64,000 nt of DNA from an uncultured Actinomycetes bacterium (GCA_963848665.1 CAWKEF010000008.1:165184-229183); one strand, 5' to 3'. Positions 35,929 through 41,946 are shown, counted from the stretch's first letter. Numbers and translations are program-made. The notes: generated by a model from the sequence alone, not told the origin.

Positions 35929-36495
35929 GTGGACAGAACGCTGAGAATCGGCGTGCTCGCCGTGCAGGGCAACTTCCGTGAGCACGCCGCGATGCTGCGC
36001 CGCCTCGGCGCGGAGCCGGTCGAGGTGCGCCTGCCGAGCGAGCTCGACGGCCTCGACGGCCTGATCATCCCGGGCGGCGAATCGACGACGATCACGCGCC
36101 TGATGGAGCTCTACGGGCTCGACGAGGCACTGCGCGGGTTCGGCGAGCCCATCTTCGGCACCTGTGCCGGCATGATCGTGCTCGATCGGGACCATCTCGG
36201 CCTCGCCGACATCAGCACGGCGCGAAACGCCTTCGGCCGGCAGGTCCACTCCTTCGAAGCCGACCTCGACATCGGTCAGGCGGGCGCGCCGCTACGGGCG
36301 GTCTTCATTCGCGCGCCCTGGATCGAGGAGGCCGGGCCCGGCGTCGAGATCCTCGCCGAGGTCGACGGTCACCCGGTGCTCGCACGAGACGGCCGCATCC
36401 TCGTCGCGGCGTTCCACCCGGAGCTGACCGACGACTCGCGAATCCACGAGCTCTTTCTCGACCAGGTTCGGGAGGGCGAGCATGTCCGGGCATAG
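35929..36495 (+). CDS. pdxT: pyridoxal 5'-phosphate synthase, glutaminase subunit
   Basis: [27 protein letters not shown] (catalytic Cys) and FHPEL. This is the C-terminal part of ORF 35143-36495. Confidence 0.9.
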
Positions 36496-37237
36496 CAAGT
36501 GGTCGTCGATCAAGCACAAGAAAGGCGCCGCGGACGCGAAGCGGGGCAAGCTGTTCTCGAAGCTCTCGCGCGCGATCATCGTCGCGGCGAAAGAAGGCGG
36601 GGGCGACCCCGCCGGCAATCTCGCCCTGCAGAACGCGATCGAGAAGGCGAAGTCGTACTCGATGCCGAAGGACAACATCGATCGAGCGATCGCGAAAGGC
36701 TCCGGCGCGGATGCCGACGCGTCGGCGTTCGAGACGGTCGTCTACGAGGGCTACGGGCCGAGCGGCGTCGCCGTGATCGTCGAGGCGCTGACCGACAACC
36801 GCAACCGCACGGCGAGCGATGTACGCCACACGTTCGCGAAGAACGACGGCAATCTCGGCGGTTCCGGTGCGGTCTCGTGGCTCTTCGAACGGCGCGGCGT
36901 CGTGCTCGTTCCGGCGGACGGCACCGACGAGGATGAGCTGACGCTCGCTGCTGCGGAGGGTGGCGCCGACGACGTCGCGCTCGACGGATCGTCCTACCAG
37001 GTGCTGACCGCGCCCGAGAGCCTCGCCGCGGTGCGCGCGGCAATCGAGCGTGCCGGCTTCGCGATCGACTCGTCCGAGCTCACGATGTTGCCGAAGACGA
37101 CGATCGAAGTCGCGGACGAGAGCGACGCGAAGAAGGTGCTCCGCCTGATGGACCAGCTCGAGGACAACGACGACGTGCAGGACGTCTACGCGAACTTCGA
37201 CATCCCCGAGCGAGTCCTCGAGGCCGTGGCCGGCTAG
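36482..37237 (+). CDS. YebC/PmpR family DNA-binding transcriptional regulator
   Basis: [28 protein letters not shown] is the invariant YebC N-terminus. GGGAGGG lies 5 nt upstream of the ATG. Confidence 0.95.
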
Positions 37238-37253: not shown

Positions 37254-38573
37254 TCACTTCCAGCCGATCGCGCCCTTGTAGACCACGAACGGGAGGACGC
37301 CGACCGCGAGCAGGCCGAGGCCGGCCGCGACGAGCCGCGGTGCCCGCGACGCGAGCCGATCGGCGCACCAGCCGAAACAGAGCGCCCAGGCACCGAGCGT
37401 CGAGAGCATGTACGTCGGCTTCAGGACGTCGCCGTCCGGCGTGGGATAGCTGACGGTGAAATAGAGATAGCCCGCGATGCCTGCGAGGGGCAGCAGCGCG
37501 ACGAGCAGCCGTTCGGCGAAACGGCGCCGAAGCGAGCGGGCGAGGAGCGCGAGCCAGCCGACGACGGCGAGGATCGTCGGCACGACCCCGAAGACGCTCT
37601 GCACCGAGAGCCAGCCGTTGATCGCCGGCCGGGGCTTCGCCTCGGTGCCCTGATCCCACACGAAGACGCCGTACCAGTCGCCCCAGATGTCCGCATAGGT
37701 CTGAGGGCCCGCGAGGTTCACGAGGTTCGGTCGGTAGGGCTTCGTGAACACCTGCGGCAGGCCCGGATCGAGGTAGAAGCTTGCCGGGCGGCGCTCCAGG
37801 AGCGGCTTGTCCACGTGCGCGGGATCGAAGATCGGGTTCGCGTAATTGGCGGCGCGGTACACATACCAGGGGGTCGAGATGGCGACGCACGCGGCAAGCG
37901 CAATCGCGAGCGCGGTCGCAAGCTGCCGCCGCTCGGCTCGGCGCCAGCGCAATGCGGCGACAAACGCGAGCACGACGACAGCCAGCGTCCAGAGGGAGAA
38001 CTGCCGGACCATCTCGCCGGCGCCGAGCGCGACGCCCAGACCCAGTGCTGCGCGTCGGCTGAACCGCCGGCGAACGAGCATGCGCGCGGTGAGGTAGAGA
38101 CAGAGCACCGACACGAAGAGGTCGATCGTCTCGGGGTTGTACATCGACGCCGTGCGCAGCAACACGGGCGAAAATGCGACGTAGCCGAGCGCGGCAGGCA
38201 CAAGCCAGCGCCGGTCCGGCCAGAGGAGGCGAGCGAGCGCGCCGACGAGCAGGGCGATTCCGATCACAGCGGGGACATTCAGGAACTGCGCGAGCTTGTG
38301 CGGCTCGCCCATGCCCGCCTCGCGGCCGATCCACGTCACACCGCCCGCGATCGCGTAGTAGAGCGGGGGCGAGTAGTACTCGGGCGTCTCGTTTGCGTGC
38401 GGTAGCCGCAGGTTGTTGATCAGGAAGTCGCCGTACTCGCGGTGGGAGGTGGCGTCGTAGCCGGCCCCCGATGGATACGACGCTGCATTCCAGGCGGCGA
38501 CCAGGCCGACGAGCGCGATGAGGAAGAGACTGAGGCGCTCCGGAGTCAGCCGTCTGGCCGCAGCGATCCCCAC
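37254..38573 (-). CDS. GT-C fold membrane glycosyltransferase (PMT/ArnT, GT39/GT83-like)
   Basis: GTG 38573 lies 10 nt after the upstream stop. There are about 11 TM segments, a first extracytoplasmic loop with YDATSHREY, and a general layout like polyprenyl-phosphate-dependent glycosyltransferases. Confidence 0.6.
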   Translation of the reverse strand: MGIAAARRLTPERLSLFLIALVGLVAAWNAASYPSGAGYDATSHREYGDFLINNLRLPHANETPEYYSPPLYYAIAGGVTWIGREAGMGEPHKLAQFLNVPAVIGIALLVGALARLLWPDRRWLVPAALGYVAFSPVLLRTASMYNPETIDLFVSVLCLYLTARMLVRRRFSRRAALGLGVALGAGEMVRQFSLWTLAVVVLAFVAALRWRRAERRQLATALAIALAACVAISTPWYVYRAANYANPIFDPAHVDKPLLERRPASFYLDPGLPQVFTKPYRPNLVNLAGPQTYADIWGDWYGVFVWDQGTEAKPRPAINGWLSVQSVFGVVPTILAVVGWLALLARSLRRRFAERLLVALLPLAGIAGYLYFTVSYPTPDGDVLKPTYMLSTLGAWALCFGWCADRLASRAPRLVAAGLGLLAVGVLPFVVYKGAIGWK

Positions 38574-38583
38574 GAAGGGGAGC

Positions 38584-39336
38584 CTACGGGGCCTGAACGA
38601 CGACGCGCGAGTTCGGCCGCGCGACCGCGAGCACGAAGTCGATCTTCGCGCCGACGCTCGTGCCGAGCGCGCGCGACAGCGACGTCGGGACGCGGAAGCC
38701 GAGGTCGGCAGAGACCATGAGCCGCCGCAGCAAGCGGTCGCCCTTCGTCGTAAGAAGCTCGACCTTCGAGGTCTTGGTGGCCGCCTCGAGGCGTTTCGCG
38801 TCGTCGCCCTGGATCGTCGGCACGTTCCGGCCGGCGAGCGCAGCCACGCCCGTGAGCCCGTTCGCAGCCGCGACGACGTCGAGATCGCCCGTGACACGGT
38901 CGAGTGTCGCGCCGTCGCTCGTCATCTTCGGGCTGCGAATCCACGAGCCGATGTCCATCCCGCTGAAGCCGCCGGAGAACGAGAGGCCCTCGGCCTGCGC
39001 CGCCGAGAGCTCCTTCGTACGGCCGTTCGAGATCACCCAGAGATGCTGCCCGTTCGAGACGAGCGTGGCGGTCGCCGGTTTGCCGTTCGTCATCTGGGTG
39101 TAGACGATTCGCGCGAGCGGCGGCTTGCCGGCGCGCAGCGCGAACGGCCCCTTCAGCTCGAACCCGAACGGCTTGCCGCCACCGTGCGGCGTCACCACGA
39201 GCTTCAGGTCGAGCACGCCGCTGTGGATCTTCGCAACGTTCTTGCCCGTCGCAGAGACGACGCCGGACGCGCTCGAGCCGCCGCACCCCGAGGCGGCGAG
39301 CGCGAGGAGCGCGACGACCGGCAAGCAGCGGATCAC
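38584..39336 (-). CDS. lipoprotein of unknown function
   Basis: MIRCLPVVALLALAASGCGG has the lipobox LAASGC. The ATG overlaps the upstream stop (ATGA at 39333-39336). Confidence 0.7.
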   Translation of the reverse strand: MIRCLPVVALLALAASGCGGSSASGVVSATGKNVAKIHSGVLDLKLVVTPHGGGKPFGFELKGPFALRAGKPPLARIVYTQMTNGKPATATLVSNGQHLWVISNGRTKELSAAQAEGLSFSGGFSGMDIGSWIRSPKMTSDGATLDRVTGDLDVVAAANGLTGVAALAGRNVPTIQGDDAKRLEAATKTSKVELLTTKGDRLLRRLMVSADLGFRVPTSLSRALGTSVGAKIDFVLAVARPNSRVVVQAP

Positions 39337-40139
39337 GGCGTCGTTGTCGTCGGCGTCGTCGTTGTCGTCCCGGTCGTCGTCGTGCCGGTCGTCGTCGTGC
39401 CGGTCGTCGTCGCGTCCGTGGTGGTCGGCGCGGTCGTCGTCGTTCCCGACGTGTCCGTGGGCGTCGTCGTCGTATCGACCGTCCCGGTGTCCGTTGTCGC
39501 AGTCGTCGTCGGCGGGGGATTCGGCTTGTTGCTTCGGTGACCGAACGAGTAGTCCGAATTGTCGCCCTCGTCCCCGTGCCCGTCATTCCGGCCCACGGGC
39601 ACGAGCTGCGTTGCGAGCACCTGCTGCAACCGGTCGATCACCCCCGGCAGCAGAGCCTTGATCTGCTCGTTCGAGAGGTGATGCACACCCCAGCTCTTGA
39701 TCTCCTCCCGGATGTCGTGCAGCTCGTGTTGGCCCTGCTTCGTGAACTCGACGGGCCCGCCGGTGCTGATCACGAACTGGTAGGCCGTCGCGAAGGTGTC
39801 GCAGAGGGTGCAGTTGTCGTTGACCGAGACCGCCACGTTCTGGGGCGACATGTTCGTTGTCGTCGTGCTCTCGTCGAGGACGATCTCGATCGCGATCGCC
39901 GTGGTCTGACACGACTCGCACGAGGAATAGGCGGCTGCGCCGTTCTCCTCGTCCACCGTGTCGCCGAGAACATGGCGGACGGCGAAGGCGAACTGGAAGA
40001 GGCTCGAGTTGTCCTGCGTATTGATCGCGATCGCGCAATTCGCGCCCTGCGGGCAGGTGCTGTCGTCGGCGCGGGCAGCCACGCCCGGCGCGAACGCAGC
40101 GGCGAGCGCAATCAGGAGGACGACGAGACGGTGCTTCAC
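39333..40139 (-). CDS. secreted protein with three Cys pairs (CxxxxxC, CxxC, CxxC) and a ~60-aa Thr-rich C-terminal tail
   Basis: Signal peptide MKHRLVVLLIALAAAFAPGVAARA. The ATG overlaps the upstream stop (ATGA at 40136-40139). The tail reads TTTATTDTGTVDTTTTPTDTSGTTTTAPTTTDATTTGTTTTGTTTTGTTTTTPTTTTP. Confidence 0.75.
   Translation of the reverse strand: MKHRLVVLLIALAAAFAPGVAARADDSTCPQGANCAIAINTQDNSSLFQFAFAVRHVLGDTVDEENGAAAYSSCESCQTTAIAIEIVLDESTTTTNMSPQNVAVSVNDNCTLCDTFATAYQFVISTGGPVEFTKQGQHELHDIREEIKSWGVHHLSNEQIKALLPGVIDRLQQVLATQLVPVGRNDGHGDEGDNSDYSFGHRSNKPNPPPTTTATTDTGTVDTTTTPTDTSGTTTTAPTTTDATTTGTTTTGTTTTGTTTTTPTTTTP
39336..39520 (-). repeat. low-complexity Thr-codon (ACN) tract encoding the tail of the secreted protein
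   Basis: Read directly. It mirrors as a poly-Val spurious ORF on the plus strand. Confidence 0.8.
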
Positions 40140-41893
40140 GGCGTGGTCGTTGTCGTCGTCGTCACGGTGGCCGTCGCCGTCGTCGTCGGCGTCGTCAGCG
40201 TCTCAGTGGTCGTCGCCGTGGTGAGGGTCTCCGTCGTCGTGGTCGGGACCGACGTCGTCGCTGCTCCGCCCGGGGTCGTCGACGAGGGAGTCGTGCTCGT
40301 GCTCGTCGTCGGGATCGTCTCGGTCGTCGTCGTCGTGTCCGTCCTCGTCGTAGAGGTGGGCGTGGTCGAGGACCGCTGCTTCTTCTTGACGGGTGCCGTC
40401 GCCGGCGTGACCGCCTTCGGCGAGGGAGCCGCGGGCGGCTTCCCGGTCGGGATCCGCTTGATCTCGCTCACCGCGCCGCCGAGGGTGCCGCGCTCGTTCG
40501 GCGAGATCGGCTTGTACACGGAGCGTGGGATCCACGTGTACGCCGCGAACGCCGCCGCCGTCGCGGCTGCGATGACGAGGAGCGCACGCCCGGCCGGGCG
40601 GCCCTCCGTCGCCTTCCAGGCTCCGCGTCCGGCCCGCCGCCCCAGCATGAAGAACGTCGCGACGAGGCCGAGCGGGACGAGCAGGAGGACGATCATCTGG
40701 ATCACGTCGACGACCATCGAGGCTGCCCCCGCATGCCCGAGCTTGTGCGCAGTCGCGACGAACGAGTCGTACGCCGTGGCAAAGACCCGGGGCATGTTCA
40801 TCACGGTCAGCCCGAGCAGGAATGCGAGCAACGGAACGAGGATGACCACGTAGGCGGTGACAGCGACCCGAGCCCACGGCTTCAGCTCCTCCACGCTGTC
40901 CTCGGTCTCCTTCCACGGCAGGAGACTCTTCAGCACCGGCTTGATGCGCATGAACATGTCGGGCACGCCGGTGAGATCGCTCACGATGTAGTAGCCGTCG
41001 AGCCGGATGAACGGGAGGAACTGGTGCATGATCTCGAGGTGCTGCAGCGGGATGATCAGGAGCAGCGGCTCGAAGCCCGTCGCGAAGTACGCGCCGGCGG
41101 TCAAGAGGATGAAGATCGTGTTGAAGTAGACGCCGCCGAGATCGGTGCGCAGGCGTCCCTTCTTGTCGAGTCGGTACGCGTCGGTGACGTCGGTGTAGAC
41201 GGCGGGCCAGACGAGGTAGAGGCCGACGCCCATCTTCCCGGGGCGGGCGCCGCCGTAGGCGCAGGCCGTTGCGTGACCGCATTCGTGAAACGCCGCCGAC
41301 AGGACGATGAGCCCGAGCAGCAAGAGGATGAAGAACGGGTCGTAGAGCGTCGAGCGGACGCTCTGCGCGATTCCGTGGTAGCCGAAGAGCCAGACGTCGA
41401 ACACGACGAGGCCGGCGAGAACCGCCAGGATCACGGGCGGTAGGAACAGCGGCCGGAAGACCTTGGTGACCGCGTTCACGACGCGCTCGGGGACGACACC
41501 GGCGCGGAACTTCAGCGCGAGCAGCGGGTCGATCTTCTTCAGCTCCTGCTCCTCGCCGTCGGCGGCTGCGGCGACGCCGAGCGGCACGAGCTTCCCCTCG
41601 ACGAGGCCCTCCACCATCTCGGCGTCGAGCCCCCGCTCGAACCGCTCGGTGACGCGCTCGGCGATCTCGCCGTAGCTGCGCTGCCCGTCGATCTCCTCGG
41701 CGATGTAGTAGAGGAGCTCGGCCATCTGCACCATCTGGCCGTCCGAGCGGCGCGCGATGTACGGCGGATCCTTGAATCCCGAGCCTTCGTACTGGCCGAT
41801 CAGCTCGATGCCGGGGGCGAGGCGCGGCGCACTCCCGACCTTCCCGTTCTCGGGCGGCGTGCGAAGGACCTGCGTCTCTGCCGTGTCCGAAAT
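40136..41893 (-). CDS. PqqD/RRE-like N-terminal domain fused to an M50 (site-2 protease) membrane metalloprotease, with a Thr-rich C-terminal tail
   Basis: HExxH in a TM helix (AAFHECGHA) and the second S2P motif (FLPFIRLDGYY). The N-terminal ~90 aa (PRLAPGIELIG...DGQMVQMAELLYYIAEEIDGQRSYGEIAERVTERFERGLDAEMVEGLVEGKLVPLG) fit the PqqD pattern. The ORF in the track (to 42214) overlaps two peptide genes, so the true start is downstream of 41959. The only candidate that keeps the N-terminal domain is ATT 41893, 8 nt after GAGGGAG. Confidence 0.8.
   Translation of the reverse strand: MSDTAETQVLRTPPENGKVGSAPRLAPGIELIGQYEGSGFKDPPYIARRSDGQMVQMAELLYYIAEEIDGQRSYGEIAERVTERFERGLDAEMVEGLVEGKLVPLGVAAAADGEEQELKKIDPLLALKFRAGVVPERVVNAVTKVFRPLFLPPVILAVLAGLVVFDVWLFGYHGIAQSVRSTLYDPFFILLLLGLIVLSAAFHECGHATACAYGGARPGKMGVGLYLVWPAVYTDVTDAYRLDKKGRLRTDLGGVYFNTIFILLTAGAYFATGFEPLLLIIPLQHLEIMHQFLPFIRLDGYYIVSDLTGVPDMFMRIKPVLKSLLPWKETEDSVEELKPWARVAVTAYVVILVPLLAFLLGLTVMNMPRVFATAYDSFVATAHKLGHAGAASMVVDVIQMIVLLLVPLGLVATFFMLGRRAGRGAWKATEGRPAGRALLVIAAATAAAFAAYTWIPRSVYKPISPNERGTLGGAVSEIKRIPTGKPPAAPSPKAVTPATAPVKKKQRSSTTPTSTTRTDTTTTTETIPTTSTSTTPSSTTPGGAATTSVPTTTTETLTTATTTETLTTPTTTATATVTTTTTTTP
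40139..40375 (-). repeat. low-complexity Thr-codon tract encoding the C-terminal tail of the M50 protein
   Basis: Read directly (…TTPTSTTRTDTTTTTETIPTTSTSTTPSSTTPGG…TTTATATVTTTTTTTP). Confidence 0.8.
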
Positions 41894-41918
41894 GGTCTCG
41901 TCTCCCTCAGGTGTTGGC

Positions 41919-41946
41919 GGCCGGGGCGGCTTGCGCCGCCCCGGCC
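41919..41946 (-). terminator. perfect 12-bp GC-rich hairpin with a 4-nt loop, between the last peptide gene and the M50 gene (candidate attenuator or partial terminator)
   Basis: The plus strand reads ggccggggcggc-ttgc-gccgccccggcc. It starts 13 nt after the stop of the fourth peptide gene. There is no U-tract. Confidence 0.55.

Follow-up and report, generated by a model that had tools for sequence, protein, structure and literature searches.

Where does translation of a gene begin when no canonical start codon precedes the first domain of its product? This question is raised by a stretch of 64,000 nt from an uncultured Actinomycetes bacterium (GCA_963848665.1 CAWKEF010000008.1:165184-229183), hereafter the window, within which all positions are counted. 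On its minus strand lie, in order, four tandem genes for peptides of 67–69 amino acids (aa), a 12-bp GC hairpin, the Shine-Dalgarno (SD) sequence GAGGGAG, an in-frame ATT at 41893 and a 585-codon open reading frame (ORF) that closes at TGA 40138-40136. From the sequence and structural models, we consider it probable that the ORF encodes a 585-residue protein, in which a recognition element (RRE) for peptides that are made on the ribosome and modified after translation (RiPPs) is fused to an intramembrane metalloprotease, polytopic and with HExxH/LDG motifs, from the M50-like group of RiPP maturation, and that this protein is an RRE-guided leader peptidase, started at AUU 41893 and held at a low level by a terminator-like hairpin together with weak initiation.

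A putative near-cognate start upstream of the N-terminal domain

An initial annotation of the window had named ATT 41893, 8 nt after GAGGGAG, as the only plausible initiator. A re-check of the sequence agrees: no in-frame ATG, GTG or TTG occurs from the stop codon of the fourth peptide gene (41961-41959) to P23 of the segment PRLAPGIELIG (41827), and ATT 41893-41891 is the sole in-frame near-cognate codon in that interval. The first in-frame ATG is M54 (41734-41732), and initiation there would drop strands β1 and β2 of the modelled domain, much as the annotation had stated in saying that half of the domain would be deleted. The public gene call identical to the protease (P0001, 532 aa, NCBI/ENA) begins at M54. 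The longest mechanical form of the ORF opens at ATG 42214, within peptide gene 3, and crosses peptide gene 4 in another frame; the annotation was right about this overlap but wrong to call the start annotated, as it belongs only to the longest mechanical ORF and was not deposited.

We compared the start region among orthologous loci (L001-L090), 80 from genomes and 10 from metagenomes, which come from Gaiellales, Solirubrobacterales, Acidimicrobiia, Rubrobacteraceae and metagenome-assembled genomes (MAGs) of Chloroflexota and Dormibacterota; a metagenome scan with the single protein gave 8 loci, the closest relatives. Over the 31 codons P23-Q53 in 88 loci, entropy is 0.45, 0.36 and 1.10 bits at codon positions 1, 2 and 3, half of the codon differences are synonymous, and invariant residues are present. 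By this substitution pattern, the 31 codons upstream of M54 are translated and under purifying selection. The codon aligned with M54 is itself non-canonical (GTC, ACG, ATC or similar) in 55 of the 88 loci, which speaks against a general start of the orthologues at the internal Met, one of the findings that, according to the initial annotation, would refute its proposal.

Precursor genes stand in tandem upstream of the protease in 75 loci, and the 74 of these with complete upstream sequence were sorted by their start. A canonical start with an SD was assigned to 18 (class A) and a canonical but SD-poor start to 26 (class B). Another 12, including the window, have no canonical codon, and an SD lies 5–9 nt before ATT, ATC, ATA or CTG (class C); the last 18 combine an SD and a near-cognate codon with, besides, only an SD-poor canonical codon (class D). 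The near-cognate arrangement is obligatory in 12/74 tandem loci and plausible in up to 30/74.

The alignment of orthologues proposed in the annotation located their start codons at one homologous position, which switches among ATT, ATC, ATA, CTG, ATG, GTG and TTG across about 90 loci. Within the Gaiellales clade, whose loci share an N-terminal T[QE]V[LQ] motif, this codon is ATT in eight loci, ATC in seven, ATG in four and GTG, TTG and CTG in one each (a count that contains one duplicate pair, L002 and L082). The sequence 3' of the start varies at third positions in this clade, and in the linker motif itself the loci differ by changes such as cag/caa, gtc/gtt and ctt/ctg/ctc. L085, 91% identical in the domain, carries the same …TGAGGGAGACGAGACC-ATT, and L090 has an in-frame GAGGGAGACGAGACG-ATT 5' of the internal ATG picked by its gene caller; the arrangement is given as GAGGGAGACGAGAC-ATT, in frame, for both. 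L089 has ATC-TTG at the homologous place. Because L085, L090 and L089 come from independent samples, an assembly indel is very unlikely. Of the two options left by the annotation, the comparison thus favours non-canonical initiation, and we reject the indel.

Three loci read directly have an in-frame stop just 5' of the SD-linked near-cognate codon, at a distance of 1–3 codons (L020, L068) or 4 codons (L059). ATT makes up 4–5.5% of Ile codons in ORF bodies versus 7/14 Ile-type start codons, a comparison uncorrected for shared ancestry. By these codon statistics the near-cognate start pattern is beyond chance, and our literature search found no description of family-wide near-cognate or SD-less starts for this protease.

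Three distant loci from Chloroflexota/Dormibacterota (L068, L073, L079) show a further arrangement, in which a very strong SD (AAGGAGG or GGAGGAGG; -10.8 to -12.8 kcal/mol) is followed by CTG-GAA (…TCACG-CTG-GAA…). L068 and L073 are without any canonical codon, and L079 has only an SD-poor GTG downstream. This apparent CTG-GAA start looks like an independent near-cognate case with a different codon.

A predicted RRE fused to a membrane protease

To characterize the domain that starts at P23, residues 1-135 were modelled with AlphaFold2 using 35 homologues. The predicted local distance difference test score (pLDDT) exceeded 90 across residues 21-110 and was low in the linker residues. The model has a β3-α3 topology, with strands at 30-34, 45-48 and 54-57 and helices at 59-67, 74-85 and 91-105, and a full-length model repeats the same secondary-structure elements. 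The structure search that the initial annotation had proposed was run with Foldseek against the PDB and gave RRE proteins as best matches. Among whole small proteins these were the lasso peptide protein B1 TfuB1 with bound leader (6jx3_B; probability 0.99, TM-target 0.68), PqqD (5sxy; probability 0.98, TM-target 0.60) and TbiB1 with leader (5v1u; probability 0.94, TM-target 0.57), and RRE-containing heterocyclases (TruD, LynD and McbB) ranked lower. Sequence identity to the structural matches is 13–18%.

A profile of 81 domains, searched against all PDB sequences, had PqqD (3g2b) as its top match (E = 0.022); an hhalign comparison with a PqqD sequence gave a probability of 65% and is a lead only. 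Conservation within the domain is highest in the hairpin of strands 2 and 3, YIARRxDGQ, in which the two Arg are invariant. Individually weak yet concordant, these tests support the assignment of the modelled N-terminal domain as a PqqD-like RRE, as the initial annotation had read it, and the homology to daptide proteases described below points the same way. The domain is probably cytoplasmic.

In the full protein, the NCBIfam model daptide_HExxH ('daptide biosynthesis intramembrane metalloprotease') matched at 1.6e-29, aligning residues 43-313 with profile positions 17-289 and so including the N-terminal domain. The YydH/LiaK epipeptide protease model (NF058609) matched over the HExxH core at 6e-11, with 42 bits against a cut-off of 225. 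The HExxH and LDG motifs reported in the annotation were found as HECGH (41287-41273) and LDG (41002-40994), invariant or nearly so in relatives. HECGH sits in a modelled helix (186-213), is invariant in a 25-sequence alignment and is at least 90% conserved in an alignment of 61 diverse relatives at 33–56% identity. Close relatives all share R297-L-D-G-Y-Y, and in the 61 the conservation of D299 and G300 is 90% or higher; the model is of low confidence in the LDG segment. Pfam Peptidase_M50 is matched weakly by 6/61 of these relatives (best E = 4e-4), and a PDB sequence search with the full-length protease profile found no relative. The M50 assignment is made from the motifs and the similarity to hidden Markov models (HMMs). 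We conclude that the fusion of RRE and protease is real, yet already known as a kind, because the closest HMM family is that of the daptide RRE-fused intramembrane metalloproteases.

A conserved hairpin and probable weak initiation

The SD begins ten bases past the hairpin. A comparable structure, with an energy of <= -25 kcal/mol in 44 nt, stands behind the last precursor gene in 92% of the 74 tandem loci, versus 4% of ORF-body controls (Mann-Whitney P = 4e-21). Stem sequences vary between loci, and some lineages have added a U-tract (L059, L026, L020, L068). A scan for sigma-70 promoters and terminators found no promoter and missed the hairpin, because the latter has no T-tract. Rfam, run on the whole window, returned one distant tRNA only and nothing in the spacer between peptide and protease genes.

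Translation signals differ sharply between the two kinds of genes. Canonical starts were found for 246/250 precursor genes in the same loci (98%; 219 ATG), the other four being masked or degenerate, and the 250 have a median SD duplex of -9.65 kcal/mol, with 87% at or below -6. For class-B protease starts (27 loci, any gene arrangement) the median is -1.9 versus -9.25 kcal/mol for precursors of the same loci. In L007, L008 and L003, ATG or GTG stands in place of ATT, and GGGAG is gone. Weak initiation, as predicted from codon and duplex, is reached in two ways, by a near-cognate codon with an SD or by a good codon without one.

Seven loci have two precursor genes divergent from the protease (L031, L035, L042, L058, L065, L066, L075); they are mostly labelled Acidimicrobiaceae, Acidimicrobiales or Acidimicrobiia, and L066 only Actinomycetota. 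The protease start is canonical (GTG or ATG) with an SD in 5/7 of them, which is in line with weak starts being important where protease and precursors share a transcript. Taken together, the comparison suggests a genuine weak start, by which the enzyme is kept in short supply compared with the peptides that are its substrates. The low enzyme-to-precursor ratio advanced in the initial annotation gains comparative support from the hairpin of the tandem loci and from orthologues whose canonical starts are mostly SD-less beside precursors with strong SDs.

The precursor family and a proposed mechanism

The four peptides of the window form one family with the pattern MSDEYRKLTREELNELAGEELPERAAMSL…NANVAAPINAAVA…Q.N. 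Their leader is acidic and conserved (…EELxxLAGEELPERAAMSL…; family motif ELP[ED]R[AE]AMSL), and their middle segment is rich in Asn, Ala and Pro. Precursor genes lie upstream of the protease in 75/81 loci. The family comprises 6551 database clusters, named only 'hypothetical protein' or, by JGI, 'predicted peroxiredoxin', none of these names being functional; we take the peroxiredoxin label to be spurious. The last residues of the window peptides are N, G, N and N, and Thr is last in only 35/248 family members. Pfam and NCBIfam gave no useful match for the four window peptides, and a literature search on Thermoleophilia RiPPs found nothing relevant. Since the cassette holds no modifying enzyme or exporter that we could see, "RiPP precursor" is a label by analogy.

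From about residue 31 to the C-terminus, the precursors are conserved at every second position (N31 N33 A35 P37 N39 A41 A43 N45 L47 D49 S51 A53 A55 A57 Q59 · I63 Q65 N67; 248 homologous genes, L001-L090). By a hand estimate from the 248-gene table, these positions hold about 3.85 bits of mean information versus about 2.8 for those between, and Cys occurs in none of the 248 members. The periodicity suggests that small and polar residues make up an extended face of strand-like character, as in an amyloid or solenoid. It could alternatively reflect modification of alternate residues, against which stands the lack of such an enzyme in the cassette.

We propose the following sequence of events. The promoter-proximal precursor genes, with ATG starts and strong SDs, would be strongly expressed, only some transcripts would pass the hairpin, and those would be poorly translated from AUU. 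The outcome would be many precursors, little RRE-protease and little of its two downstream partners. The RRE would bind the conserved acidic leader of the four precursors and feed the Asn/Ala/Pro-rich middle segment of a bound precursor to the membrane-embedded active site. The protease would then cut in or beside the Asn/Pro-containing hydrophobic stretch and so remove the leader, and the product would perhaps be released outward across the membrane, as proposed for EpeP. In this scheme we infer leader binding, the cleavage site, export, the selection of weak initiation for stoichiometry, and sensitivity to IF3.

Alternative explanations

If the public call were right and translation began at M54, the conserved sequence upstream would be an untranslated leader. 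Among canonical in-frame starts M54 comes first, it is where P0001 and the gene calls of about eight orthologues begin, and the upstream GACGGCCAG pairs weakly in an SD-like manner (-5.7 kcal/mol). The coding-type substitution and invariant residues of the 31 upstream codons, the frequent absence of a start codon at the aligned position, and the loss of two strands from a confidently modelled domain make this highly improbable. A sequencing or assembly indel might conceal a canonical start, for instance the out-of-frame GTG at about 41836-41834, some 55 nt 3' of the ATT: SD-like GGGAAGG precedes it, and its frame reaches a stop after 10 codons (VRRASPPASS*), so that one indel could be enough to connect it with the ORF. 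This is barely credible given that independent assemblies (L085, L090, L081, L087) retain the frame and the SD-ATT, that the in-frame ETQVL after ATT is conserved with third-position changes, and that near-cognate starts recur over many assemblies and several phyla. The frame of the longest ORF (692 aa, from ATG 42214) does run uninterrupted through the 135 codons that precede the domain, but the extension reads as an Arg-rich alternative frame of peptide-gene sequence, contains the hairpin and lacks an SD (-2.1 kcal/mol), and in most orthologues an in-frame stop lies behind the last peptide gene and ahead of the protease start (for instance L020, L068, L059, L053, L003 and L005). We regard this start as almost untenable.

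Two other explanations accept AUU as a start. The weak start may be drift tolerated in a gene of low demand, and not a selected device; the start codon does vary freely among close relatives (ATT, ATC-TTG, ATG, GTG), and in 18 tandem loci a canonical start goes with an SD. We think this unlikely: weakness comes by two alternative routes, which looks like compensation, and it recurs with different codons in Gaiellales, Acidimicrobiales, Rubrobacteraceae, Chloroflexota and Dormibacterota. It is moreover absent from 246/250 precursor genes, accompanies a conserved attenuating hairpin, and gives way mostly to canonical starts with an SD where the protease has its own upstream region. Alternatively, two isoforms could be made, one full-length from AUU and one from M54 that lacks the RRE and is under different substrate control. 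The window has an in-frame ATG-GTG pair at M54-V55 with a weak SD-like sequence, and ATG or GTG stands at the M54 position in 33/88 loci. That position, however, is occupied by a hydrophobic residue of a β-strand, encoded equally often by GTC, ATC or ACG, and no conserved SD was seen there; two isoforms strike us as quite improbable.

Several observations weigh against the favoured reading of an RRE-guided protease with a selected weak start. For the domain, the Foldseek E-values of the RRE matches are weak (0.03–0.1), GdmN and Rv2067c score similarly, and Pfam PqqD (PF05402) is unmatched by the window protein and likewise among the 61 relatives. For the protease body, daptide_HExxH (NF041824) scores 103 bits versus a curated cut-off of 300, Pfam M50 (PF02163) is unmatched by the window protein at E <= 0.1, and the full-length model is helical but of moderate confidence only (mean pLDDT 69), with no solved site-2 protease returned when Foldseek was run with it. 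The missing modifying enzyme and exporter count here as well. For the starts, an ordinary canonical start with an SD in 18/74 tandem loci means that the weak start is not universal, the assignment of the start in class D is partly arbitrary and classes B and D are partly heuristic, SD-poor ATG starts may be mis-assigned, and the shared ancestry of the loci means that counts and binomial P overstate independence.

Downstream genes and chromosomal setting

The protease gene and the two genes downstream of it are joined by 4-nt GTGA stop/start overlaps (40139-40136 and 39336-39333), which suggest translational coupling of both partner genes with the protease; the two would then probably be limited by the weak protease start too. 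The first encodes a 268-aa protein with three paired-Cys motifs (C..C, CESC and CTLC), and the second a 250-aa lipoprotein-like protein. Neither had a Pfam, NCBIfam or PDB-sequence match. The protease and the 268-aa protein both end in long Thr/Pro-rich tails (40136-40441 and 39336-39530, minus strand). Past the lipoprotein gene lies a candidate PMT_2/DUF2142-like membrane glycosyltransferase (37254-38897, minus strand; Pfam E = 1e-4 to 7e-4, below cut-off), and the Thr/Pro tails could be O-glycosylated; this gene is not conserved in other loci. Pfam returned nothing useful for the three downstream proteins, and NCBIfam no match for the downstream proteins. Coordinates are collected in Table 1.

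Table 1. Features of the peptide-protease cassette, in window positions
Feature	Position	Strand	Remarks
Precursor peptide gene 1, 67 aa	42598..42801 incl. stop	-	ATG 42801; member of the 248-gene aligned family
Precursor peptide gene 2, 69 aa	42387..42596 incl. stop	-	ATG 42596; start by homology (MSEEYRKL...), mechanical ORF opens further upstream
Precursor peptide gene 3, 68 aa	42168..42374 incl. stop	-	
Precursor peptide gene 4, 68 aa	41959..42165 incl. stop	-	
GC-rich, terminator-like hairpin	41919..41946	-	12-bp perfect stem, GCAA loop, no T-tract; centroid -34.9 kcal/mol, z = -3.8
Shine-Dalgarno GAGGGAG	41902..41908	-	anti-SD duplex -7.8 kcal/mol, 8-nt spacer to ATT; GGGAG kept in orthologues
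Proposed near-cognate start ATT	41891..41893	-	only in-frame start-like codon before the domain; same SD-ATT in L085, L090, L081, L087
N-terminal linker, residues 2-22, with ETQVL motif	41828..41890	-	low pLDDT; T[QE]V[LQ] kept
Predicted RRE/PqqD-like domain, residues 23-110	41564..41827	-	AlphaFold2 model, Foldseek, profile search, codon-position entropy
Internal ATG, M54 (start of public call; rejected)	41732..41734	-	in strand β3
Linker and polytopic membrane metalloprotease body, residues 111-484	40442..41563	-	NCBIfam matches below cut-off; helical model
HExxH zinc-binding motif H203-E-C-G-H207	41273..41287	-	inside predicted membrane helix
LDG motif L298-D299-G300, putative third zinc ligand	40994..41002	-	conservation
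Thr/Pro-rich C-terminal tail, residues 485-585, and TGA	40136..40441	-	TGA overlaps GTG of next gene (GTGA)
Downstream gene 1, 268 aa	39333..40139	-	apparent signal peptide (by eye), paired Cys motifs, Thr-rich tail; syntenic in 72/89 loci
Downstream gene 2, 250 aa, lipoprotein-like	38584..39336	-	LAASGC lipobox; syntenic in 55/89 loci

The wider neighbours are housekeeping genes (yebC, pdxT-like, SDR, msrA, ruvCAB). The genes yebC, ruvC, ruvA and ruvB are usually contiguous, and the cassette lies on the opposite strand between yebC (36482-37237, plus strand) and ruvC-ruvA-ruvB (43077 onwards, plus strand). In all 24 other, mainly Gaiellales-type loci (L001-L008, L011, L017, L021, L030, L036, L046, L054, L055, L057, L063, L070, L081-L083, L087, L088), ruvC is found at the same upstream place, and yebC lies on the far side in 18/24. 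The shared flanks argue for a stable, vertically inherited chromosomal feature, and its constant placement in Gaiellales, with yebC to one side and ruvCAB to the other, speaks for a physiological role and not for an accessory antibiotic.

Significance

The fusion of the two domains has been described before; what is uncharacterised is the cassette and the precursor family linked to it. Database clusters number 6551 for the precursors and more than 3700 for the protease. It is conceivable, and we offer this as a tentative view, that they belong to a peptide system, unnamed and very abundant, of Actinomycetota, Chloroflexota and Dormibacterota from soil, in which the enzyme level has repeatedly been tuned by changes of start codon and SD. 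Its precursors would be free of Cys, with a two-residue periodic Asn/Ala/Gln face that may form strands or amyloid; an RRE-guided intramembrane protease would mature and perhaps export them alongside two extracytoplasmic partner proteins, and lineages would swap the start to AUU, AUC, AUA or CUG, or drop the SD. If true, the cassette would be a natural, possibly IF3-sensitive, translational rheostat 3' of a leaky terminator.

Such starts also affect database records. Among the 120 database entries closest to the protease (P0001-P0120), a hand tally gives at least 22 visibly distorted gene calls: about 8 begin MVQM or MAELL and truncate the RRE, and about 14 extend through the SD, with AGGGAG read as 'RE' (…RETTIS…). 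These distortions arise with gene callers that accept only ATG, GTG and TTG, by which the RRE is lost or the ORF is extended back across the SD. Genome mining based on RREs, through which the daptides were discovered, thereby misses the peptide-binding domain. AUH or CUG starts are apparent in 16–40% of the family and many other members have an SD-less AUG, which makes an unusually clear natural series. Set beside strongly translated operon partners, this series could serve the study of enzyme-to-substrate ratios set by initiation strength. The RRE-fused membrane protease extends beyond daptides, here with a large precursor family and no recognisable modifying enzyme.

Comparison with known systems

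The closest known relatives are the daptide proteases, in which an RRE is fused N-terminally to a site-2 protease; in daptide precursors the C-terminal Thr is invariant and the leader motif is ELExMEAP, and the daptide clusters encode DapB, DapC, DapD and DapM (Ren et al. 2023, Nat Commun 14:1624). The window protease shares with daptide MpaP/DapP (NF041824, its best HMM match) an architecture in which the RRE is N-terminal and the membrane HExxH protease comes after it, and in both systems the protease gene adjoins several short precursors in tandem, whose leaders carry a conserved acidic motif that contains Pro. Unlike daptides, the window precursors lack the invariant terminal Thr and their leader reads ELPERAAMSL, and Pfam and NCBIfam revealed no DapB (DUF-RRE), DapC (Fe-ADH), DapD (aminotransferase), DapM (methyltransferase) or transporter in the cassette. 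The hosts differ too, being Thermoleophilia, Acidimicrobiia and Chloroflexota MAGs here. We reject membership in the daptides on the score of 103 versus 300 bits, the precursor ends and leader, and the Dap enzymes missing from the cassette.

EpeP/YydH-LiaK (NF058609) and the pearlin M50 proteases TglG and TmoG are likewise membrane HExxH proteases that mature ribosomal peptides. EpeP is thought to cleave and export its peptide (PMC10885120), and an EpeP-like combination of cleavage and export would explain why no transporter is found here. In contrast to the window protease, an N-terminal RRE is not described for the EpeP, LiaK or pearlin proteases in the literature searched, and epipeptide clusters need a radical-SAM epimerase. 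Membership in the epipeptides (YydF/EpeX) is rejected, with 42 versus 225 bits and no radical-SAM gene in the cassette. The discrete RREs PqqD, TfuB1 and TbiB1, the best structural matches, share the predicted β3-α3 winged-helix fold; the window domain differs from them in being fused to a membrane protease.

Expression of the cassette also has partial parallels. In lantibiotic-type operons such as nisA-nisB, a hairpin lies between the precursor gene and the processing genes. The window likewise has a stable stem-loop right after the last precursor and ahead of the enzyme genes, but here it is joined with a weak translation start. For that start, one parallel is infC, which starts at AUU and is autoregulated by IF3. 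In Streptomyces, a GUC start of sigR is repressed by IF3 and sets the SigR/RsrA stoichiometry (Feeney et al. 2017, PMC5472188), and mRNAs with AUU and AUA starts are translated and compete differently from AUG mRNAs, depending on context (PMC5499595). As in infC and sigR, the protease family keeps a non-canonical start with an SD across relatives, which plausibly sets the stoichiometry of co-transcribed partners; unlike in those genes, the identity of the weak codon is variable (ATT, ATC, ATA, CTG) and alternates with SD-less canonical starts.

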